From Terriglobia bacterium (GTDB lineage: Bacteria; Acidobacteriota; Terriglobia; 20CM-2-55-15), in assembly GCA_965218585.1 (NCBI GenBank), contig CBDCLE010000019.1:133603-197602 (forward strand): DNA of 64,000 nt. The letters run 5' to 3'. Shown in pieces: positions 46,620 to 58,330 of the stretch. The notes under the pieces were generated by a model. That model was not told the origin of the DNA. It saw only the letters and a program-made list of their open reading frames with translations, and ran no database searches. Position 1 is the first letter of the stretch; the number at the start of each line of letters is the position of its first letter. The position numbers and the translations under genes were made by a program.

Positions 46620-47618
46620 ATGAAACATCAACTGCCTTATCTCCTGATTCCATTAACGCTGCTGGTCGTCGCGCCGGCTTCCGCTAGCCCGGTGGGCACC
46701 GAACCCCTGTCTTGCGCGGATCACTCCATCGTGGCCAGCGCCGTGCGCACAACGGAGGACGTTCAGGCGTTTGTTCAGTGCGCCTATGAGTATGTCCAGG
46801 AAATGGGGTTTGAAGAGGCCCGGCGGGCCTTCCACGAGGATGCGCGTTGGAAGGGCGGGGCCATCTATATCTTCGTCTCCGAAGCGACCCCGATGAGCGA
46901 TCAGGCGCGACTGTTCGTTTGGCCGCCCGCCCCGCCAAGGGTAGGATCCTCGCTAGGACTCCTTATCGACACCTTCGGCAACGACTACTACAAGGAACAG
47001 CATCGTATAGTCAGCCGCTTTGGTGAGGGCTGGCTCTATTACTCGTTCACAAACTTCGCGACGGGCCGGGATGAGCCGAAGGCTACCTACATCAAGGGCA
47101 TCGAGTGGGAGGGAAACCTGGCCGCGATCGGAGCGGGGGTCTACCGCCGCGACCTTCCCGGCACCTGCGAGCGCGAAGAGGTCCATGCCATGGGGCTTGA
47201 GGCCGCGCCTTCCGTTGAAAGGCTCGAGGTGTTTGTCCGCTGCGCGGCGATGGAGCTGGAATCGCAGGGGTACTTCGCGACCCGGTCCCTGTCCACCGAT
47301 CCGCGCTGGAATAGTGGTTCGATCTATGTGTTCGGCCTGGATACGTACGGCCACACACTGTTCAGCGGCGATCCCTACAGCCGGACGTATGGCGTCTTTT
47401 CCCGACCTTCCGAGTTGAACGCCCATCTGGACGGTCCCTTTGGCGGGCGGGATGTCGTGAGTGTCGGCGACGCCTTCGGTGAAACCTTCCTGTACTACAC
47501 GACACTCAATCCGGCCACCGGGATGCAGCAGCGCAAGGCGGCTTTCGTCAAGCGGGTCGTGGCCTATGGCGTGCCGATCCTGGTCGGCGCCGGCTATTAT
47601 CTGGCCGCGGGTCCGTAG
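46620..47618 (+). CDS. Exported protein with two tandem single-Cache domains and no signalling domain
   Basis: Signal peptide; twice-repeated FVxCA...RW..G.IY.F...G...LYY...N.ATG....K.......GAG.Y. Confidence 0.75.
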   Translation: MKHQLPYLLIPLTLLVVAPASASPVGTEPLSCADHSIVASAVRTTEDVQAFVQCAYEYVQEMGFEEARRAFHEDARWKGGAIYIFVSEATPMSDQARLFVWPPAPPRVGSSLGLLIDTFGNDYYKEQHRIVSRFGEGWLYYSFTNFATGRDEPKATYIKGIEWEGNLAAIGAGVYRRDLPGTCEREEVHAMGLEAAPSVERLEVFVRCAAMELESQGYFATRSLSTDPRWNSGSIYVFGLDTYGHTLFSGDPYSRTYGVFSRPSELNAHLDGPFGGRDVVSVGDAFGETFLYYTTLNPATGMQQRKAAFVKRVVAYGVPILVGAGYYLAAGP

Positions 47619-47639
47619 GCCGGCCGGGGAAAAGCGGCC

Positions 47640-47778
47640 CCTACATGGAAGGGGCTCAACGGCGTGGAGCTCGCCACGCTGGATTGGGTTTGCTGGTACA
47701 ACGAGAAACGATTGCTCGAGCCGATCGGCCTCGTTGCGTTCGGAGTCAGCTAAAACAGTCTCTGGAAAACCCGGTTCA
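47640..47778 (+). mobile_element. Second, shorter IS3-family 3'-end relic
   Basis: Homologous to ~45797-45991 (TGGAAGGGGCTC...GAGCCGATCG...GGAAAACCCGGTTCA). Confidence 0.72.
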
Positions 47779-47947
47779 CTCAAAGCCCTGGTCGTCAGCG
47801 ACGACACATCAAAGGTGGCTTCACTGATGACGCGAACCGCCATCCGGAGTTCCAACTAGGGGTCACCTCACGAAACGGAAAAAATCGTACGCTGATATGG
47901 ATTGACCCTGTCAAGCTTCCGTTACGTTTCTCGAATGCGCCTCCTTC

Positions 47948-48149
47948 AATGTGCTGGATTCAGGGCGCGGCCGGCATGATTCGCGACGGTGGATCACTCT
48001 GATATTCGTGGGTTGGCTACCACCTGACATCACTTCGTCGCGGAGCTGCCTCGGTCTAAGGACGTGGGTCGGTCTGGCTGAGCCAAGCCTCTCATAGCGT
48101 GCACGAGGATTCTCCTCACCGGCCTGCCACGCCCTGAATCCAACACATT
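47948..48149 (-). ncRNA. Predicted bridge/seek RNA of the IS110 element
   Basis: A 20-bp closing stem encloses two loops closed by CCUCG/CGAGG and CGCGACG/CGUCGCG, carrying segments that match target and donor sequences. Confidence 0.75.
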
Positions 48150-48301
48150 ACGTTTTTTGGGTCCAGCCTTGCTCCGGAAGCGCATGATGGCATTGCGCCC
48201 GGGGAGGCGTCGGAGGAGTTCTCCACACCTTGTCCATGGCACCGCGTGCTTCGAATACACGGCGGAGCAGTGGCAAGGTGTGGAGAACTCCGGCCCATCT
48301 C

Positions 48302-49432
48302 TCAGCTCCGCGCCCGCGTTGCATGGGCTCGGCCCATCACCTCGCAAGCAATCGCCCAGATGAACCCCACCAGCTCGCGGGCCACCGCGGTGGTGACCAC
48401 GCACTTCGCCTTGCCCGCGCTATACAGATGCCGGTACCGCGCACACAGCCGCTTCTGGGCTGCCCAGGCGATGGCCTGCACTGCTGGCGGCGCCGCACTC
48501 GCCTTGCATCTCAAGTGCCTGGTTTTGCGCGCAGGGAACCGGTAGCTCCAGGCCGATTCAACCAGCACGCGGCGCACGTGTCCATTGCCTGTTTTCGTGA
48601 TGGCTCCTTGGCGCCGCCGCGGCCCCGAGGAGTGCTCGCTCGGCACCAGCCCCAGAAAGCTCATCAACTCGCGCGGCGAATCAAAACGCGTCAGGTCCCC
48701 GAGTTCGGCCAGCACCGTCATGGCCGTGACCACATCCACCCCGCGCAACGCGATCAGCGCCTCGACCATCGGACGCAGCGACCACTGCTCCAACACCTCG
48801 CGCATCTGCCCTTCCAGGCCCGCCACGCGGCGGCGCGCCTCCATCACCGTATCGACGTATTCCTGAAACACCACCTGCTGTACCGGATGCTCGAACCGCT
48901 GCTCCTCCAGCCACCGAAAGTGCCGTTGCGTCCACCGGCTCTTGCCTTCCCGATACACTCGATCATGACGCAGCAGAAACGCCCCCAGTCGCTGCCGAGC
49001 CTTGGCCTCGATCGCCTTCATGTCCTCGCGCGCCCGCGTCAGGTCGCGCATCGCCTCCTGCTCCTCGTCGGGCACCCACACCGCCGTCAGCTCCCCCGAC
49101 CGATGCAGCCGCGCCAGCTTCACCGCGTCGCGCCGATCCGTCTTCACTCGCTCCCCCGCGCGCCGCGGGATCAGGCTCGGCGCGACCACCTCGCAATAGT
49201 GGCCGGTGTCGATGATCTCTCGATACACCCCATACCCGCACGGTCCCGCCTCGTAGCAGAAGCTCAACACCTCTGCGTGCGGACTCAGGCTGCGAATGAG
49301 TCGCAGCAGCGATTTGCGTTGATTCTTGATCTCGCCCCGGTACACCGGCGCCTCACGTCCGGGCAGCGCTACCGCCACCGCGATCGTGTCCTTGTGAACG
49401 TCCAGTCCAACGTATGCACTACACTTGTTCAT
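48302..49432 (-). CDS. IS110 DEDD recombinase (376 aa)
   Basis: VGLDVHK, CYEAGP, KTDRRDA (DEDD), GLVPSEHSSG (Tnp-domain Ser), ITKTGN, AVAREL. Confidence 0.95.
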   Translation of the reverse strand: MNKCSAYVGLDVHKDTIAVAVALPGREAPVYRGEIKNQRKSLLRLIRSLSPHAEVLSFCYEAGPCGYGVYREIIDTGHYCEVVAPSLIPRRAGERVKTDRRDAVKLARLHRSGELTAVWVPDEEQEAMRDLTRAREDMKAIEAKARQRLGAFLLRHDRVYREGKSRWTQRHFRWLEEQRFEHPVQQVVFQEYVDTVMEARRRVAGLEGQMREVLEQWSLRPMVEALIALRGVDVVTAMTVLAELGDLTRFDSPRELMSFLGLVPSEHSSGPRRRQGAITKTGNGHVRRVLVESAWSYRFPARKTRHLRCKASAAPPAVQAIAWAAQKRLCARYRHLYSAGKAKCVVTTAVARELVGFIWAIACEVMGRAHATRARS

Positions 49433-49589
49433 GACCTGCCCTCCTCGTTGTGGCTCTGTGTCGAAGGTTCCTCGCCCCGCAACATAACCCACGCGTACGA
49501 GGCCAGGGCAGGTCAATCCATGGTGTCTAAGAGCCATCCGAATGGCCGCTCGTGGCCGACAACAGCCCTTTTCCCCGCATTATCTTGCT

Positions 49590-49712
49590 CTGTCCAGTTG
49601 AGGCATACCCTAGCTTAACGTCAGGGACGGTGCGCTGAAGCGTCAGAATAGAGTTCTAATTTGGATTGATGGACACATCCCGTCCAGGGTTATAGAGTTC
49701 TTCCTGACAGAC
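49590..49712 (+). promoter_or_regulatory. res site of the Tn3-family transposon
   Basis: GTTGAGGCATACCCTA and CGTCAGAATAGAGT resemble Tn21-type res subsites; directly upstream of tnpR. Confidence 0.7.
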
Positions 49713-49730
49713 TGGATTCAGGAGAACACC

Positions 49731-50291
49731 ATGCACGGTCACCGTATCGGCTACGTCCGGGTGAGCAGTTTCGACCAGAACCCGGAACGCCAACTCGAGC
49801 ATGTCCCGGTCGATCGGCTCTTTACCGACAAGGCTTCGGGTAAAGACACGCAGCGTCCGGAACTGGAAAGGTTGCTCGCCTTTGCGCGCGAGGGCGACAC
49901 AGTGGTGGTGCATAGCATGGACCGGCTGGCGCGCAACCTGGACAACCTGCGGCTCATCGTGCAGAAGCTTACCAAGCGCGGCGTGCGCATCGAGTTCGTC
50001 AATGAAAGTCTGACCTTCACCGGTGAGGACTCGCCGCTGGCGAACTTGATGCTGTCGGTCATGGGGGCCTTCGCCGAATTCGAGCGGGCCTTGATCCGCG
50101 AACGTCAACGCGAGGGCATCGCCCTTGCCAAGCAGCGTGGGGCCTATCGGGGCCACAAGAAATCGCTATCGCTGGAGCAGGCGGCCCAGCTACGCCAGCG
50201 GGTGCAGGCTGGAGAGCGGAAGGCCCCCCTGGCCCGCGAGTTTGGCATCAGTCGAGAAACCCTCTATCAATACCTGCGCACAGAAGACTGA
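49731..50291 (+). CDS. tnpR: Tn21-like resolvase
   Basis: [41 protein letters not shown]-terminal HTH; 186 aa. Confidence 0.95.
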
Positions 50292-52838
50292 CGATGCCTC
50301 GCCGCAGTGTGCTGACGCCCGCCGAGCGCACCTCGCTTCTTGCCTTTCCGACCACCAACGATGAGCTGATCCGTCACTATACTTTCTCCGAATTCGACTT
50401 GGCGTCGATCCGGCAACGACGCGGCAATCACAACCGGCTCGGCTTCGCCGTGCAGTTGTGCTACCTGCGCTACCCGGGCTTCGCCCTACCGACTCAAGGC
50501 GAGCCGCCCGCGGCCTTGCTGGCCTTTATCGGACGGCAATTGCACATCGAGTCGGACAGCTGGCCGCAGTACGCAAAGCGTCCGGAAACCCGCCGGGAGC
50601 ACCTAGCAGAATTGCAGGCGTGGCTGAACCTGACGACATTCAGCGCAGCCGATCACCGACGCTTCGTTGAGCCGCTTGTCGGACCGGCTCAACAGACCGA
50701 CCGCGGCATCGTCCTCGCTGAAGCTTTAGTCGAGAGGCTGCGGCGGCAGCGCATCATCCTACCGACACTCGACGTCATCGAGCGCGTTTTGAGCGAAGCG
50801 CTGACGCGCGGGACGCGTGTGGTGTATGAGGCGCTGACCGCCCCTCTCAGCGATCCTCATCGTCGGGCCCTCGATGCGCTGCTGAGCGTGCGAGAAGGCG
50901 GCATGGGAAGTGGACTGGTTTGGCTTCGCCAGCCGCCCGGTCCGCCAAGACCGAAGCACATCCTGGTCCACCTAGAGCGACTAAAGGCTATCCGCGAGCT
51001 TGGATTGCCGGAGGGCTTGGAGCACACCGTCCACCAGAACCGCCTAATGAAACTGGCTCGCGAAGGCGGCCAGATGACCGCCCAGCATCTACGCGACCTA
51101 GAGAGCAAGCGGCGCTACGCCACCCTGACGGCGCTCCTGCTCGACACTCGCGCCACATTGATCGACGAGGTCATCGATCTGCACGACCGCCTCATCGGCA
51201 CGCTGTTCAACCGCGCCAAGCGCCGCCACGCCGATCGCTTCCAACAGTCCGGCAAGGCAATCAATGACAAGGTCCGCCTGTATTCACGCATCGGCCGGGC
51301 CTTGCTGGAGGCCAAGCAAACGGGCGGTGACCCGTTCGCCGCCATCGAGACGATTCTGCCGTGGGAGGTGTTCAGCGAGAGCGTCACCGAAGCGGAGAAG
51401 CTGGCGCAGCCGGAGGACTTCGACTACTTACCGTTGGTCGGCGACAGCTTCAACCAGATCCGGCGCTACACGCCGGCACTGCTGGAGGCGCTCAGCATGA
51501 AGGCTGCGCCGGCGGCAGGCGACGTGATGAGAGCGGTGGAGGTGCTCAAAGACATGAACAAGCGACAAGTGCGCAAAGTACCAGACGACGCGCCGACGTC
51601 CTTCGTTCGCAAGCGCTGGAGAAGTCAGGTGCATACGCTGGACGGTTTGGATCGCCGGTTCTACGAGCTATGCGTGCTCTCGGAACTCAAGAATTCGCTG
51701 CGCTCCGGCGATGTTTGGGTGCAGGGCTCGCGCCAGTTCAAGGACTTCGAGGAGTACCTGTTGCCGCCGTCGCGTTTCTCGGCACAGCGTGAACAGCAAG
51801 CCCTGGGCCTGGCGGTGGAGACCGACTGTGAGCGGTTCTTGGAGGCGCGGCTGGCCGTGCTGGAGCGCGAGCTGCAAACGGTGGAAAGGCTCGCGGCGCA
51901 GGACGAGTTGCCGGATGCGTCCATCATCGGTACGGACCTCAAGCTCACCCCGCTCGACAGCGCTGTGCCGCCGGAAGCCGACGCGCTGACGCGCCGAGCG
52001 TACGGGATGTTGCCCCATTTGAAAATCACCGAGCTGCTCCTGGAAGTGGACGACTGGACCGGCTTTACCCGTCATTTCACGCACCTCAAAAGCGGCAGGA
52101 CGACCGAAGACAAGAGCTTATTGCTGACGGCTGTGCTCGCCGATGCGATCAACCTGGGGTTGACAAAAATGGCGGAATCCTGCCCCGGCTATACCTACGC
52201 CAAACTCTCGTGGTTGCAGTCCTGGCACATCCGAGATGAAACCTATTCGTCCGCGCTGGCCGAGTTGGTCAACGCGCAGTACCGCCAGCCCTTCGCCTTG
52301 TGGTGGGGCGAAGGCGCAACCTCCTCGTCGGACGGCCAAAACTTCAAAGCTGGGGGCCGCGGTCAGTTCGCCGGCCAAATGAATCCAAAGTACGGCTTGG
52401 AACCGGGCGTGCAGTTCTACACCCACGTCTCCGACCAGTACGCGCCCTTCCACACCAAAGTCATCAACGCCACGGTGCGCGACGCGACTCATGTGCTGGA
52501 CGGCCTGCTCTACCACGAGTCCGATCTACGCATCGAAGAGCACTACACTGACACGACCGGCTTCACCAATCATGTGTTCGCACTGATGCATCTGCTGGGC
52601 TTCCGCTTCGCGCCGCGCATCCGTGACCTTGGCGACAAGCGCTTGTATATCCACGGCAACCCGACGCGCTACCCGACGCTCGCTGGGCTGATTGGTGGCA
52701 GCGTCAACGTCAAACGGATCCGCACCCACTGGGATGACATCTTGCGACTCGCAGCGTCGATCCAGCAAGGGACGGTAACGGCCTCGTTGATGCTGCGCAA
52801 GCTCGGCAGTTACCCGCGTCAGAACGGCTTGGCACTAG

Positions 52839-54575
52839 CCCGCATGTTTCACCAGTCCGGCGATCAGGGGGATTTGGGCAGTAAGAATCGGATTCGGGAG
52901 GATCTGGGTTCGAATTGGGCATGTGTGGCGTGACTCGGCGGTGTCGACAAGCGGGAGTTGCTGCGTTTTCGGGTTCAGAAGAGGGTGACGAAACGCACTG
53001 AGACAAACCTCGGCGGAGCCGAAAAGAGCGAGTCGATTTTGGCGCAGGGGATCGGGTCGGTTCTCAGCAGCGCAGAGGAAGCGCCTGCAGGTTTCGATGG
53101 ACGAGGGCAAAGACCTCGGCGTAGGGATAGGCTTCCGACATGGAGATCCAGATGTTGCGAACCGTCAGACGGACTTGAGCTCCGATCTTGAGGAGCTTCA
53201 AGCGGATCGTCTGGCACTGAGCGCGGGCCAGATCGGTATTCTTCAGTCCCAGACGGCGTAACGCGTGCAGGAGCATGTAGGCGGCCGAGGACAGATAGAG
53301 CCGGAGTTGATTGGCGCGCATGGTTGCCGCGCTGGTCCGGTCGGCGAATAGATCCAACTGCTGTTCCTTGATGCGATTTTCCATGTCGCCCCGCGCACAG
53401 TAAAAGTCTTCATAGAGGGCGCGGGCGTCCAGGCGTTCCGGCGACAGTGAGGTCACAACGAATCGAGGATTGGCGCCTTTCTCCAGGAACTCGGCCTTGC
53501 CGATGACGCGTCGGGTGCAGGTCCAGCTCTTCCGAGTGCGATACCGGAAATCGTTAAACACCCGCGCCGGTTTCCCGGTGTCGTTAAACTCGGCTTCGGC
53601 CTGACTCATCGATTCAGCGATCTCGCGCTTGAGCCGATCGTTCTTGGCCAGACCCACCACGTAATCGACCTGGTGGGCCTCGCACCAACTCAGCAATTCA
53701 TCCCGGCAAAAGCCCGAGTCGGCCCGGATGATAATCGACACCTCCGGCCAGCTCTGCCGGATCTGGCCGATGATGCGGTTCAATTCCTCGACGGCGCCGT
53801 CCGCACCGTCGACATTGGAGCACCGCAACCGGGCGCATAGCAGATGCTCTCCCGAAAAGATGTAGAGCGGCAGATAACAGTAGTTGCCGTAGTAGCCGTG
53901 AAAGAACCGTCCTTCCTGATGGCCATGGATCGGATCATCGGTCGCATCCAGGTCCAGAACAATCTCCTCGGGCGCCGATCCGTGAGCCGCCACAAATGCA
54001 TCCACCATCCAGCGGTCGATCTTGTCCGGGTCCATGGCAATCTTCTTGTACCGCTCCTTCCCATCGACTTGCTCCCCGGTCAGTTCCAACCGGTTCAGCG
54101 TACACTTGCCCGCCAACGCTTTTCCCCGGTCTCGGGCCTGCCGCCGCTTCTCCCCCAGTGGATCGGCCTTATCCACCGCCACGGCCAGCATCGGATCGGT
54201 CCGCAGTTGGTCATGATCGTTCAGATCCTCGTAGCCCAGACAGAGTCCGTAGACGCGCTGCCCCAATAACTCGCTCACCGTGTGTTCGATCAACCTCGCG
54301 TCCCGGTAATCCCTGAAACACTCGGCCAGTCCGGCGATCAGACCCGTTCGCTTTTCCACTTCCCTCAACAGCAGAACCCCAGCGTCGGAGGTGATCTTTC
54401 CGCCGTCAAAACGCGCCTTCACTTTTCGTTGAAGAAGTCCGTGAAATTCGAACGTCGTTTGGTTACACTCTGTTCTCATAAGGGCCGTCTCCGTTTGGCT
54501 TGTTAAACGTTTATTTCAAAACGCTTTATGCCAGACAGGGCGGCCTTTTCTGGTCCTATCGGTGAAATATGCGGG
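52839..54575 (-). mobile_element. Complete IS1380-family element with CTAG duplication
   Basis: IRs CCCGCATGTTTCACC and (rc) CCCGCATATTTCACC; CTAG at 52835 and 54576. Confidence 0.92.
53064..54479 (-). CDS. IS1380-family transposase
   Basis: FDGGKITSDAG, GYEDLNDH, LDLDATDD, RADSGF, YCARGDMENRIKE. Confidence 0.95.
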   Translation of the reverse strand: MRTECNQTTFEFHGLLQRKVKARFDGGKITSDAGVLLLREVEKRTGLIAGLAECFRDYRDARLIEHTVSELLGQRVYGLCLGYEDLNDHDQLRTDPMLAVAVDKADPLGEKRRQARDRGKALAGKCTLNRLELTGEQVDGKERYKKIAMDPDKIDRWMVDAFVAAHGSAPEEIVLDLDATDDPIHGHQEGRFFHGYYGNYCYLPLYIFSGEHLLCARLRCSNVDGADGAVEELNRIIGQIRQSWPEVSIIIRADSGFCRDELLSWCEAHQVDYVVGLAKNDRLKREIAESMSQAEAEFNDTGKPARVFNDFRYRTRKSWTCTRRVIGKAEFLEKGANPRFVVTSLSPERLDARALYEDFYCARGDMENRIKEQQLDLFADRTSAATMRANQLRLYLSSAAYMLLHALRRLGLKNTDLARAQCQTIRLKLLKIGAQVRLTVRNIWISMSEAYPYAEVFALVHRNLQALPLRC

Positions 54576-54998
54576 CTAGCGCTGCGCGAACTCGGCCGCA
54601 TCGAGCGCACCCTGTTCACGCTCGACTGGCTGCAAAACATCGAGTTGCACCGCCGGGTACAGATCGGTTTGAACAAGGGCGAGGCCAAGAATGCGCTGGC
54701 CCGCGCCGTGTTCTTCAACCAGTTGGGTGAACTGCGCGACCGCAACTTCGAGAACCAGCGCTACCGTGCCAGCGGACTCAACCTGGTGGTCGCCGCCATC
54801 GTGCTCTGGAACACGGCTTACCTGGAACGGGTGGTGCAAGCGTTGCGGGACGCCGGAAACGCGGACGACAGCCTGCTGCCTCATCTGTCGCCACTGGGCT
54901 GGGAGCACATCAACCTGACGGGAAACTACAGCTGGCAGCAGAACAAGCAAGTCGAACAGGGTAACTTCCGGCCCTTACCGTCGCTCAATCAGCCTTAG

Positions 54999-55355
54999 AC
55001 ACCATGGATTGACCTGCCCTGGCCTCGTACGCGTGGGTTATGTTGCGGGGCGAGGAACCTTCGACACAGAGCCACAACGAGGAGGGCAGGTCATGAACAA
55101 GTGTAGTGCATACGTTGGACTGGACGTTCACAAGGACACGATCGCGGTGGCGGTAGCGCTGCCCGGACGTGAGGCGCCGGTGTACCGGGGCGAGATCAAG
55201 AATCAACGCAAATCGCTGCTGCGACTCATTCGCAGCCTGAGTCCGCACGCAGAGGTGTTGAGCTTCTGCTACGAGGCGGGACCGTGCGGGTATGGGGTGT
55301 ATCGAGAGATCATCGACACCGGCCACTATTGCGAGGTGGTCGCGCCGAGCCTGAT
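54999..55355 (+). mobile_element. Second IS110 copy (left end plus 5' of the recombinase gene), truncated by IS256
   Basis: Appears identical to the reverse complement of ~49170-49526; begins right after CTTAG at the tnpA stop. Confidence 0.9.
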
Positions 55356-55390
55356 GGCTCTTGTCAAGAAAGTTGTGTTTGAGGAGGGGA

Positions 55391-56632
55391 TCATAAGTCC
55401 TCCTCAAAGCGGGATTGGAACATGGCGTTGAGCTGATGAAGAGCGGAATGGATGGAAGTGGCCGGAGATTTCCAACGGCCGTTGTGGAGGTGAGAGACGG
55501 CCAAGCCGAGTTTGAACTTGAGGGTGTCTTCGGAGTGAAAGTAGCCGCCCGAATTGCGGCGCATAATTTCCAGTTGTCCGTTGACGGCCTCGACGAGGTT
55601 GGTGGTGGAAAACGATTTGCGCATGAGGTCGGGATACTTGAGGAAGGCGAGATAGTGAGTCCGTTTCTTGCGGAGCCCCGCGATCCAGGAGGGATAGTGC
55701 TGGGCGAAGCGGTCACAGAGTTCCTCGAACCCTTGGTTGCCGACATCCTCACACCAGGAGGACTTGATGGCACGGAAGCGTTGCTGAAACTCGGCGGCGT
55801 CGGATTTGGAGAGATGGCTCTTAGCATTGCGCTGCATGTGGACGGTACAGAGCTGGATATCAGCATTGGGAAAGAAGCCTTCGCTGACCTTGAGAAGGCC
55901 GGAGAAATCGTCCTGGACGAAGATCATGACGCGTCGGAGACCGCGCTCGATCAGAGAGCGGAGAACCCCCTTCCAGTCTTCGAGATTCTCGCGGCCGGGT
56001 TTGGCAATGCAGGCCAGGACACGCTTCTTGCCGTCGCGGCCTAGACCCACCACCAGGTAGATACAGGCCGGACGCAGCCGGTCGCCGTCGCGGAGTTCGA
56101 CGTACTTGCCATCCACGAATAGGGCCAGCAGATCCGTGTCCAGTGGCCGGCTGTTGCCAAGATCGAGTTCTTCGATCAGGCCCGACGCCACCCGTTCCAG
56201 ATCCTGTTGGGACCCGGACAGGCCCATCTTCTGAAGCGCCTCCCGGGCCGCATTGACCGAACGGGATGAGGCCAGCAGTCCCAGCAAGATGGACTCGACT
56301 TCTTCAGGGTAGCCGCGCTGATACGGGGATGGTAGGTTCGCGGGACGGAAATCCCCGTTACGGGTTCGAGGGACACGGATATCGATCGGAACGCTGCCCA
56401 CTTGGAGGGAGCGATCGTAAAAACCATTGGGACGGTCGTCGGGGCGGTGTTCAAGATGCAGGTCCCGTTCGGCCACACTGAGGCCCGACAACAGGGTCCC
56501 CAGTACCTCGCGCAGGCTCAGATCGGCCAGCCCGGAGGCCAGCAGGGTCTGGATCTGTGTTTTTGTGGATTCAGAAATCTGTTCTGATGGTACGCTTTCA
56601 TTCGGATCTGTAGACATTGGGTTCAACTCCAT
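55391..56632 (-). CDS. IS256-family transposase
   Basis: NGFYDR, VPRTR, FVDG, VQDD, QLCTVH, STTNLVE. Confidence 0.9.
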   Translation of the reverse strand: MELNPMSTDPNESVPSEQISESTKTQIQTLLASGLADLSLREVLGTLLSGLSVAERDLHLEHRPDDRPNGFYDRSLQVGSVPIDIRVPRTRNGDFRPANLPSPYQRGYPEEVESILLGLLASSRSVNAAREALQKMGLSGSQQDLERVASGLIEELDLGNSRPLDTDLLALFVDGKYVELRDGDRLRPACIYLVVGLGRDGKKRVLACIAKPGRENLEDWKGVLRSLIERGLRRVMIFVQDDFSGLLKVSEGFFPNADIQLCTVHMQRNAKSHLSKSDAAEFQQRFRAIKSSWCEDVGNQGFEELCDRFAQHYPSWIAGLRKKRTHYLAFLKYPDLMRKSFSTTNLVEAVNGQLEIMRRNSGGYFHSEDTLKFKLGLAVSHLHNGRWKSPATSIHSALHQLNAMFQSRFEEDL

Positions 56633-56706
56633 AACTGAATAACTGATGACTCAGGTCTAGGGCTCCAGCGTGAACTGGAGCCCGCTTCAATTTCAGCGGG
56701 CGACGG

Positions 56707-56827
56707 GGGCTGTGGAAACTGCCGGGCCTATGGAAATCGGGGGAATCGGTCGCCTTCGGCGGCTTCTTCTTGATGATTTCCACAGGCCCTTGGAACACCT
56801 CCGGCGTCCGCACAGTTCCCACAGCCC
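56707..56827. repeat. Nested hairpin inside the IS256 upstream non-coding end
   Basis: GGGCTGTGGAAACTG/CAGTTCCCACAGCCC encloses GGGCCTATGGAAATC/GATTTCCACAGGCCC. Confidence 0.7.
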
Positions 56828-56891
56828 GGACGACGAATCTATCATTCTCTCTCAACTGGAAATCACGAAACACAACTTTTACGTTACTCCC

Positions 56892-58269
56892 ACCAACTGC
56901 GGACCGATCCGATGCTGGCCGTGGCGGTGGATAAGGCCGATCCACTGGGGGAGAAGCGGCGGCAGGCCCGAGACCGGGGAAAAGCGTTGGCGGGCAAGTG
57001 TACGCTGAACCGGTTGGAACTGACCGGGGAGCAAGTCGATGGGAAGGAGCGGTACAAGAAGATTGCCATGGACCCGGACAAGATCGACCGCTGGATGGTG
57101 GATTGCATTTGTGGCGGCTCACGGATCGGCGCCCGAGGAGATTGGTTCTGGACCTGGATGCGGACCGATGATCCGATCCATGGCCATCAGGAAGGACGGT
57201 TCTTTCACGGCTACTACGGCAACTACTGTTATCTGCCGCTCTACATCTTTTCGGGAGAGCATCTGCTATGCGCCCGGTTGCGGTGCTCCAATGTCGACGG
57301 TGCGGACGGCGCCGTCGAGGAATTGAACCGCATCATCGGCCAGATCCGGCAGAGCTGGCCGGAGGTGTCGATTATCATCCGGGCCGACTCGGGCTTTTGC
57401 CGGGATGAATTGCTGAGTTGGTGCGAGGCCCACCAGGTCGATTACGTGGGTGGGTCTGGCCAAGAACGATCGGCTCAAGCGCGAGATCGCTGAATCGATG
57501 AGTCAGGCCGAAGCCGAGTTTAACGACACCGGGAAACCGGCGCGGGTGTTTAACGATTTCCGGTATCGCACTCGGAAGAGCTGGACCTGCACCCCGACGC
57601 GTCATCGGCAAGGCCGAGTTCCTGGAGAAAGGCGCCAATCCTCGATTCGTTGTGACCTCACTGTCGCCGGAACGCCTGGACGCCCGCGCCCTCTATGAAG
57701 ACTTTTACTGTGCGCGGGGCGACATGGAAAATCGCATCAAGGAACAGCAGTTGGATCTATTCGCCGACCGGACCAGCGCGGCAACCATGCGCGCCAATCA
57801 ACTCCGGCTCTATCTGTCCTCGGCCGCCTACATGCTCCTGCACGCGTTACGCCGTCTGGGACTGAAGAATACCGATCTGGCCCGCGCTCAGTGCCAGACG
57901 ATCCGCTTGAAGCTCCTCAAGATCGGAGCTCAAGTCCGTCTGACGGTTCGCAACATCTGGATCTCCATGTCGGAAGCCTATCCCTACGCCGAGGTCTTTG
58001 CCCTCGTCCATCGAAACCTGCAGGCGCTTCCTCTGCGCTGCTGAGAACCGACCCGATCCCCTGCGCCAAAATCGACTCGCTCTTTTCGGCTCCGCCGAGG
58101 TTTGTCTCAGTGCGTTTCGTCACCCTCTTCTGAACCCGAAAACGCAGCAACTCCCGCTTGTCGACACCGGCGAGTCACGCCACACATGCCCAATTCGAAC
58201 CCAGATCCTCCCGAATCCGATTCTTACTGCCCAAATCCCCCTGATTGCCGGACTGGTGAAACATGCGGG
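56892..58269 (+). mobile_element. 5'-truncated, frameshifted second IS1380 copy, inverted relative to the first
   Basis: Near-identical to the reverse complement of 52839-~54211; ends GGTGAAACATGCGGG then CTAG. Confidence 0.9.
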
Positions 58270-58330
58270 CTAGTTAATCAAGGGACCGGAATTCGAAATT
58301 CTCTGTCGGGAACTTTCTAACGAGGCATTC

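Follow-up and report, generated by a model that had tools for sequence, protein, structure and literature searches.

How did one and the same insertion sequence (IS) come to lie at an identical nucleotide in both terminal inverted repeats (IRs) of a single Tn3-family transposon? This question is raised by a 64,000-nucleotide stretch of DNA from a Terriglobia bacterium (assembly GCA_965218585.1), hereafter called the window, which is the final 64 kb of contig CBDCLE010000019.1 (C19) and ends where the contig ends. The genome amounts to 4.55 Mb in 26 contigs; positions given without a contig name are those of the window. We consider it highly probable that the IS is an RNA-guided element of the IS1111 group (IS110 family) and that it was inserted twice, independently, at the same base of both IRs, as specified by its guide.

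Occupation of both transposon ends by the same IS

Tn3-family transposons are bounded by 38-bp IRs that begin with GGGG and finish with TAAG. The transposon of the window carries a TnpA with DUF4158 and DDE_Tnp_Tn3 domains, a resolvase and a 38-bp IR, the features by which members of this family are recognized, and its TnpA shows 76-80% identity to Tn3-family transposases of plasmids. The genome contains a single full Tn3 tnpA.

When the two ends were examined, the left IR was found to be split into 35 bp, the IS, and then AAG preceded by CT, while at the right end the IS directly abuts CTTAG, at the tnpA stop codon. Each occupied IR consists of 35 bp followed by IS sequence, in which GAT stands in place of AAG. 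Aligned with each other, the two IS copies show 100% complementarity along 362 nt (49170-49531 versus 54994-55355), made up of 357 nt of the IS and the common CTAAG. At both transposon ends the IS is oriented alike: its left end, with the start of the transposase, adjoins the inner AAG side, and the transposase points outward. Although the insertion falls in the innermost IR bases, which overlap the tnpA stop, the TAG codon is intact inside CTTAG despite the adjacent IS. A first, sequence-only reading of this DNA had proposed the identical insertion nucleotide, the same orientation relative to the IR, the CT/AG core common to both junctions and the preserved stop, all of which were seen again here; its deduction that two sequence-specific insertions had occurred agrees with the distinct flanks, the opposite orientation of the two copies and the recurrence of the CT core at both junctions.

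A CT/AG dinucleotide is the typical recombination core of the IS110 family. Uninterrupted IRs that match the 35 bp of the window IR (type A) at 34 of 35 nt are common on plasmids (E. coli, Marinobacter). These intact IRs read ...ATCGTACGCTAAG, two that were aligned with the window read ...AAAAAATCGTACGCTAAG, and the continuation past the 35 bp is ...ACGCTAAG. Since they show the empty site, the insertion point could be placed at ACG-CT-AAG, with CT flanking the IS on both sides: the empty IR (ACGCTAAG) holds a single CT, whereas occupied sites hold one on each side (AG in the IS orientation). As read from the sequence, the doubled CT is the signature of core-to-core recombination without target duplication.

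The sequence-only reading had counted two IS copies. Both junctions are real, but the second copy is not whole: the window contains its first 357 bp only, up to 55355, where an IS256-family element begins (Table 1). The rest of copy 2 was located on contig C10 (133836-135122) and corresponds to IS positions 1-1287 in window plus-strand numbering. This half adjoins the outer 35 bp of a type-A IR, the IS fragment and the IR together covering C10:133836-135157. The window fragment corresponds to positions 1277-1633 and overlaps the C10 fragment by 8 bp, where each of them meets IS256. The flanks of IS256 are reciprocal, AGCCTGAT-IS256-ACCAACTG in the window and ACCAACTG-IS256-AGCCTGAT on C10 (132303-133839), and these IS256 copies are identical; the genome has six in all, of which the other four possess matching 7-8 bp flanks. 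One of the two original IS256 sites lay in IS copy 2 and the other in an IS1380 copy. From the C10 fragment, the 8-bp overlap and the reciprocal flanks, it was concluded that copy 2 had once been complete in the right IR. IS256 would have inserted into copy 2 and would later have been exchanged with the IS256 sitting in the IS1380 copy. The swapped flanks arose either from a real inversion involving inverted IS256 copies or from an incorrect path of the assembly through them, and the tnpA-CTTAG-IS junction stands under either explanation.

The tnpA gene is itself broken by an IS1380-family insertion, and the transposon is therefore dead regardless of the insertions in its IRs.

Table 1. Features of the occupied transposon and of the inserted IS (window positions)
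Feature	Position	Strand	Remarks
Left IR, outer 35 bp, type A	47859-47893	+	GGGGTCACCTCACGAAACGGAAAAAATCGTACGCT; also GGGGTCACC...CGTACGCT; last CT is one core copy
IS copy 1, complete	47894-49526	-	1633 bp between two CT cores; IS110 family, IS1111 group
Predicted seek/bridge RNA	47981-48127	-	two stem-bounded internal loops
Donor guide (predicted)	47997-48005	-	AUAUCAGAG
Target guide B (predicted)	48054-48062	-	UCCU-UAG-AC
Target guide A (predicted)	48095-48103	-	UGCACG-CUA
Transposase of IS copy 1	48302-49432	-	DEDD type, 376 amino acids (aa)
CTAAG	49527-49531	+	second CT core copy and inner 3 bp (AAG) of left IR
tnpR	49731-50291	+	serine resolvase, 186 aa; Pfam PF00239, PF02796
tnpA, N-terminal part	50294-52838	+	848-849 codons; DUF4158 and first part of DDE_Tnp_Tn3
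IS1380-family element in tnpA	52839-54575	-	limits approximate within a few bases; CTAG repeated on both sides
IS1380-family transposase	53064-54479
tnpA, C-terminal part	54576-54998	+	reading frame 54528-54998; whole tnpA span 50294-54998
CTTAG	54994-54998	+	inner right-IR end and core; contains tnpA stop TAG (54996-54998)
IS copy 2, first 357 bp only	54999-55355	+	left end and transposase start; begins ACACCATGGATTGACC
IS256-family element	55356-56892	-	1537 bp; cuts IS copy 2; left flank AGCCTGAT, right flank ACCAACTG

Further mobile DNA surrounds the transposon. A second IS1380-family copy, inverted and itself cut by the IS256 element, lies at 56893-58274. Outside the left IR, the segment 47620-47760 resembles by eye an IS3-type transposase gene at its 3' end, a mobile-element remnant at which no search was aimed; the open reading frame 47461-47859 gave no Pfam match.

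Assignment of the element to the IS1111 group

The DEDD transposase of the IS matched PF01548 (4.9e-16) and PF02371 (2.2e-20), and scored 266 bits against the NCBIfam model NF033542, "IS110 family RNA-guided transposase", for which the cut-off is 140. In the IS1111 group, subterminal IRs of 7-17 bp lie a few bases inside the element ends. Here they measure 11 bp: ATGGATTGACC begins 5 nt in from the left end, and GGTCAATCCAT finishes 3 nt short of the right end. The left end comprises 94 nt before the ATG, the non-coding right end 408 nt after the stop, and the translation contains GLVPSEHSSG, which corresponds to the C-terminal motif GL-P----S(t)G of the group. Subterminal IRs, a short left end, a long 3' non-coding end and this motif are the IS1111 features named in PMC11187229 and PMC11208160. 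Judged by its sequence, the element is an RNA-guided IS of the IS1111 group.

Relatives of the element were collected, 80 of them at 59-98% identity, which with the window copy gave a set of 81; both ends could be parsed in 53 (52 relatives and the window copy). The subterminal IRs are kept across these 53 elements, and AG was found on both sides in all of them (53/53). The closest relatives are a truncated element in a Terriglobia metagenome-assembled genome (MAG; 98%), one in a Gammaproteobacteria MAG (88%) and one on a Marinobacter plasmid, the best plasmid match (66%). The nearest relatives are alike in their ends (ACA..ATGGATTGACC and GGTCAATCCATATC), their AG core and their RNA architecture, and differ in their guides and targets, many being inserted in a GGAGCCTGTCGG-type repeat.

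Individual relatives deserve mention. In a Paracoccaceae MAG, an element with 70% transposase identity is alone among the relatives in having a comparable guide (AUCACG-CU). Of its five copies, one reads CTTAG-IS-AGCGTCGC...GATGCCCC, with CCCC 34 nt out, a spacing like that of a Tn3-type IR, and the other four occupy CTTAG-YGT sites lacking the CCCC spacing feature. On a Halomonas chromosome, the arrangement suggests an IS inserted beside or into its own remnant.

A predicted guide RNA matching the transposon end

In the non-coding right end, the relatives share a common architecture, which begins GGAGAAyCCUCG - 6 nt - CUA - UGAGG - variable hairpin - GACCCUCG and continues 4 nt - UAG - A.. 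- GAGGCAGCUCC - CGACGAAG ... AUAUCAGAG ... CGUCG. The guide blocks could be parsed in 37 of the 53 elements, to which the following agreement figures apply. The 6-nt block (guide A) is reverse-complementary to the right flank, with positionwise agreements of 0.35, 0.62, 0.84, 0.92, 0.97 and 0.92 versus 0.24-0.38 for mismatched pairs of elements. The 4-nt block (guide B) reproduces the left flank (0.38, 0.43, 0.49 and 0.86 versus 0.26-0.30). Over the whole set of 53, the element's own non-coding region contained a 7-mer complementary to the right flank in 26 cases, versus 52 of 2696 mismatched pairs, and the left-flank 6-mer in 14 cases, versus 153 of 2718. The covariation of guide and target across the relatives is thus directly observed. 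The donor loop in turn tracks the IS right end: ATACC is accompanied by AUACCAGA in 7/7 elements and ATATC by AUAUCAG in 45/46, together 52/53.

A consensus fold of 33 sequences (RNAalifold) contained 26 pairs, of which 9 show compensatory changes, and placed the guides in internal loops closed by stems. Folding of the non-coding region as a single sequence was also tried; it paired the guides with each other, and the alignment fold was more informative. Together, the covariation and the consensus fold predict a seek/bridge RNA with a target loop and a donor loop. In this RNA the segment complementary to the top strand stands 5' of the other segment.

The loops of the window IS, UGCACG-CUA and UCCU-UAG, specify the target TGCACG-CT-AAGGA, the two guides overlapping at the CT/AG core. 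This target is the conserved inner end of the Tn21/Tn501-like 38-bp IRs together with one or two bases beyond; taken apart from the full 38-bp IR, the short target stretch is TGCACGCTAAGGA.

The following scheme can be proposed. One internal loop of the RNA would pair with both strands of the target, UGCACG-CUA with one and UCCU-UAG with the other, and the second loop, AUAUCAGA, would match the junction produced by joining of the IS ends via the same core. By the published mechanism of the family, the IS would excise as a circle, with the predicted junction ...CCATATC-AG-ACACCATGG..., and would recombine core-to-core with its target, leaving a core copy on each side and no target duplication. 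As both IRs present the same sequence in opposite orientation, two insertions are expected at the same base, each pointing outward, each dividing the IR 35/3 and leaving the stop intact. The right end contains a TTGACA that, in the predicted circle junction, would stand 17 nt upstream of CACCAT and might weakly qualify as a junction promoter of the kind described for relatives.

Members of the family excise precisely as circles (PMC12288879, PMC11187229), and any block imposed on an IR could for this reason be reversible. It is plausible that the IS acts as a reversible block of the transposon, or that it rides along as a parasite.

Sites occupied in the genome and the share of the predicted guide in their choice

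By BLAST, five full and four partial IS copies, 99.5-100% identical, were detected in the genome. The sequence-only reading had suggested that the flanks of all copies be tabulated; wherever a flank survives among these nine copies and fragments, it reads ...ACGCT-IS-CTAA(G). Six junctions lie in three Tn3-like IR types. Type A is represented twice (window and C10), type B (GGGGTCGAGTCC...CCTACGCT) three times, once on C4 beside a resolvase remnant and twice, as partial copies, on C9, and type C (AGGGTATCAGG...TTGCACGCT) once, on C10. The two other junctions are in look-alike sites outside IRs, one on C16, intergenic among housekeeping genes, and one on C4 (C4a), beside an IS701-like transposase.

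Thus, the ACGCTAA sites of IR type are occupied in 6/6 cases and the other ACGCTAA sites in 2/136, the remaining 134 being empty and none of them IR-like. Fisher's test for IR versus other sites gave p values from ~1e-5 to 3e-9, to be read with the restriction that the copies are not independent events. A chance coincidence of the insertion base is excluded, even though the copies are not fully independent. The empty non-IR sites include 35 ACGCTAAG, 13 ACGCTAAGG and 4 GCACGCTAA, again none IR-like, and a search of this genome for an empty Tn3-type IR found none.

At C9:158691-160412, the partial copies (positions 1-564 and 1-1159, window plus-strand numbering) stand head-to-head and meet at C9:159254. 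Both are joined to outer 35-bp IRs of type B, one apiece, and nothing of the transposon interior is left. This pair is a second element with both ends occupied. Its head-to-head join was produced by an odd deletion, or else it is a palindromic artefact of the assembly. Unoccupied ACGCTAA sites also occur in repeat families spread over many contigs, ...GGGGGACGGTGGGCCCGACGCTAAT in ~15 copies and ...GAAGGAACTGGCCTCTCCCACGCTAACGGACGACATCGT in ~18 copies, probably part of another IS.

Among 301 genomes of the class, near-identical IS DNA was present only in the window's genome, in one of the same family (a truncated copy) and in one of the same genus. In the latter, a 40-nt remnant of the IS right end lies beside a fourth GGGG...ACGCT 35-mer. 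A metagenome scan with a 21-nt word of the IS right end returned a sole match, a different relative in a non-IR site.

Several observations weigh against two guide-specified insertions. The 5-bp flanks outside the type-A IRs are unequal, AACTA on the left and TACAA at the right half on C10, with no direct duplication; the transposon has therefore undergone rearrangement or does not occupy a simple primary site, and its ends might in principle derive from separate copies. An empty copy of this transposon's IR was not seen in the same organism, and no circle junction was observed, the public runs being available as short contigs only. Guides could not be parsed in 16 of the 53 elements, the 5' strand of the donor loop showed no clear covariation with the IS left end in the 53-element set, and an Rfam scan of 47500-56000 at E <= 1 gave no family match. 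When sites were scored on the 13-nt target, the occupied ones reached 12 (IR type C), 11 (C16), 10 and 9 (IR type A), 9 (IR type B) and 8 (C4a), yet one empty site scored 12/13 and 21 scored 11/13. In contiguous match, the 13 empty ACGCTAAGG sites equal IR type B, and the 4 GCACGCTAA sites are empty as well. The guide alone does not fully explain the occupancy.

These last data bear on the most serious of the alternatives, which we nevertheless regard as unlikely: RNA pairing would account for only part of the specificity, and the IR context, or the DNA state of Tn3 ends (TnpA binding, replication during transposition), would add a preference beyond the ~9-13 bases read by the guide. The contrast between IR-type and other ACGCTAA sites speaks for it, including the 0/35 occupancy of the non-IR ACGCTAAG sites, as does the remnant beside a fourth 35-mer in the genome of the same genus. 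Moreover, five insertions went into IR types A and B, although these agree with guide A at just 3-4 of 6 positions, while the 13 equal sites outside IRs remained empty. On the other side, the same bias would result from survivorship, since insertions in the IRs of dead transposons are cost-free and many of the other sites are genic, as argued for IS5075 (PMC8269217). The IS copies are not independent events, the only conserved features of the IR types are an initial GGG and a terminal ACGCTAAG, and both occupied non-IR sites have the best guide A match. An A/T-rich tract upstream of ACGCT was considered as a second determinant and rejected, IR type B having a value of 0.44 versus a mean of 0.45 for empty sites. 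The simplest reading of the IR bias is that the IRs of dead transposons are harmless to land in, so that selection would retain copies there; this safe-harbour argument has been published for IS5075 (PMC8269217).

Origin of the second junction

Two independent insertions, our preferred reading, have also to be set against a single one. In that case the second IR-IS junction would be a copy, made by gene conversion or recombination involving either IS-loaded ends or two copies of an already loaded transposon. The 100% identity of copy 2 to copy 1 over 357 nt would fit such copying, and the lack of a common 5-bp duplication at the transposon ends implies that rearrangement has happened at the locus. 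Against this, the junctions are mirror images, one per transposon end, as two hits on an inverted repeat predict, and the C10 half differs from copy 1 at ~2 of 1287 positions, like the other copies (99.7-99.8%). The presence of the same IS in at least three other IR types and in two non-IR sites establishes repeated independent targeting, and on C9 a second pair of IR halves, of type B, also carries the IS at both ends. We therefore judge a single insertion improbable.

Still less probable is an assembly artefact, in which copy 2 would be a duplicated or mis-joined repeat. The region is indeed a nest of 100%-identical repeats (IS256 with six copies, IS1380 with two), the window stops at a contig end, and the reciprocal IS256 flanks could mean a wrong path through the assembly graph. 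Copy 2 nevertheless runs opposite to copy 1 and has a unique left flank, the 3' end of tnpA; IS256 interrupts it at a defined 8-bp target, the other half of which is on C10, and the tnpA-CTTAG-IS junction would persist even with the IS256 joins swapped. Among the public short contigs (four DNA-type runs), none bridges 54998/54999 with adequate sequence on both sides, and these data neither confirm nor contradict the tnpA-IS junction. One public contig of 124 nt contains the last 61 nt of tnpA (54938-54998) without mismatch, followed by 63 nt that are not IS; it could represent an unoccupied IR in a related population.

Comparison with known systems

The IS4321/IS5075 elements, also of the IS1111 group, target the 38-bp IRs of Tn3-family transposons of the Tn21 subgroup (cited in PMC11187229 and PMC8269217). 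The sequence-only reading had named them as a precedent, and rightly so (PMC8269217, PMC5725488). IS5075 splits the IR into 16 bp and 22 bp and occupies both IRs of one transposon, Tn6404 (PMC5725488), and look-alike targets outside IRs, such as ureC, are on record for elements of this type (PMC8269217). The resemblance to the window IS extends to the DEDD transposase, the subterminal IRs, the long 3' non-coding end, one fixed position and orientation in Tn3-family IRs, the outward transposase, both IRs being occupiable, and rare look-alike sites.

That the window IS is a plain member of the IS4321/IS5075 group is hardly credible, in spite of the shared family, group, target class (the 38-bp Tn3-family IR) and outward orientation relative to tnpA. 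The comparison with IS5075, another check suggested at the outset, gave 24% transposase identity over 356 aligned residues (E = 9e-18), tblastn gave 25-26% to annotated IS4321 and IS5075 genes, and membership was refuted; the seekRNA paper groups IS at >70% identity (PMC11187229). The cut also differs, 35/3 here versus ~22/16, that is 14-15 bp further inward. In plasmid pRIO-5, IS5075 leaves CTTAGCGTGCTTTATTT inside, which is 17 nt of inner IR, versus 3 nt plus the core (CTTAG alone) for the present element of 1633 bp. The hosts are different as well, an acidobacterium versus Enterobacterales plasmids.

The behaviour of the window IS has full precedent in IS5075. New here are the unrelated lineage in another phylum, the different cut position and the targeting of at least three or four divergent IR types, which follows from the IS reading the ACG-CT-AAG inner end. 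Full-text literature searches found no IS1111 element reported to cut the inner end of a Tn3 IR, although the supplementary target tables of PMC11187229 and PMC11208160 may hold one. As a tentative and rather doubtful extension, transposon-end targeting may have arisen at least twice in the IS1111 group by retuning of the guide, with a real preference for IRs beyond RNA pairing, reflected in every IR of the genome being taken and 13-35 chromosomal sites of equal match being left empty, the element being a dedicated hyperparasite of Tn3-family transposons that caps and, by precise excision, uncaps them. If true, this lineage would, through the ACG-CT-AAG inner end common to the IR types found here, load onto many unrelated Tn3-family transposons, whereas IS4321/IS5075 are limited to Tn21-family IRs.

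The case would provide a second, independent example of an RNA-guided IS landing on the ends of other transposons, with a guide-target match readable from the sequence, and would indicate that a conserved repeat of mobile DNA can become a target for unrelated members of a recombinase family. It also offers a natural target-guide pair and a 53-element covariation set for IS1111 bridge/seek RNAs, which are of interest as programmable recombinases. For genome annotation, such insertions explain why Tn3-type IRs of this genome look truncated at 35 bp.

A seekRNA has been shown experimentally for ISEc11, ISPa11, ISKpn4 and ISPst6 (Siddiquee et al. 2024, PMC11187229). The window IS shares with the IS1111 elements described there the non-coding region downstream of tnp, the segment complementary to the top strand standing 5' of the other, and the GL-P----S(t)G motif. 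It differs in its target, a transposon IR versus the REP (repetitive extragenic palindromic) sequences and attC sites of that report, in the size of its transposase (376 aa versus 330-350 aa) and in that its RNA is a prediction. With the bridge RNA of IS621 (Durrant et al. 2024, PMC11208160), the predicted RNA has in common a target loop, a donor loop and a dinucleotide core common to target and donor. In IS621 the left end, upstream of the recombinase, encodes the RNA (PMC11208160); in the window IS the right end would encode it, and end recognition may here fall partly to the long subterminal IRs.

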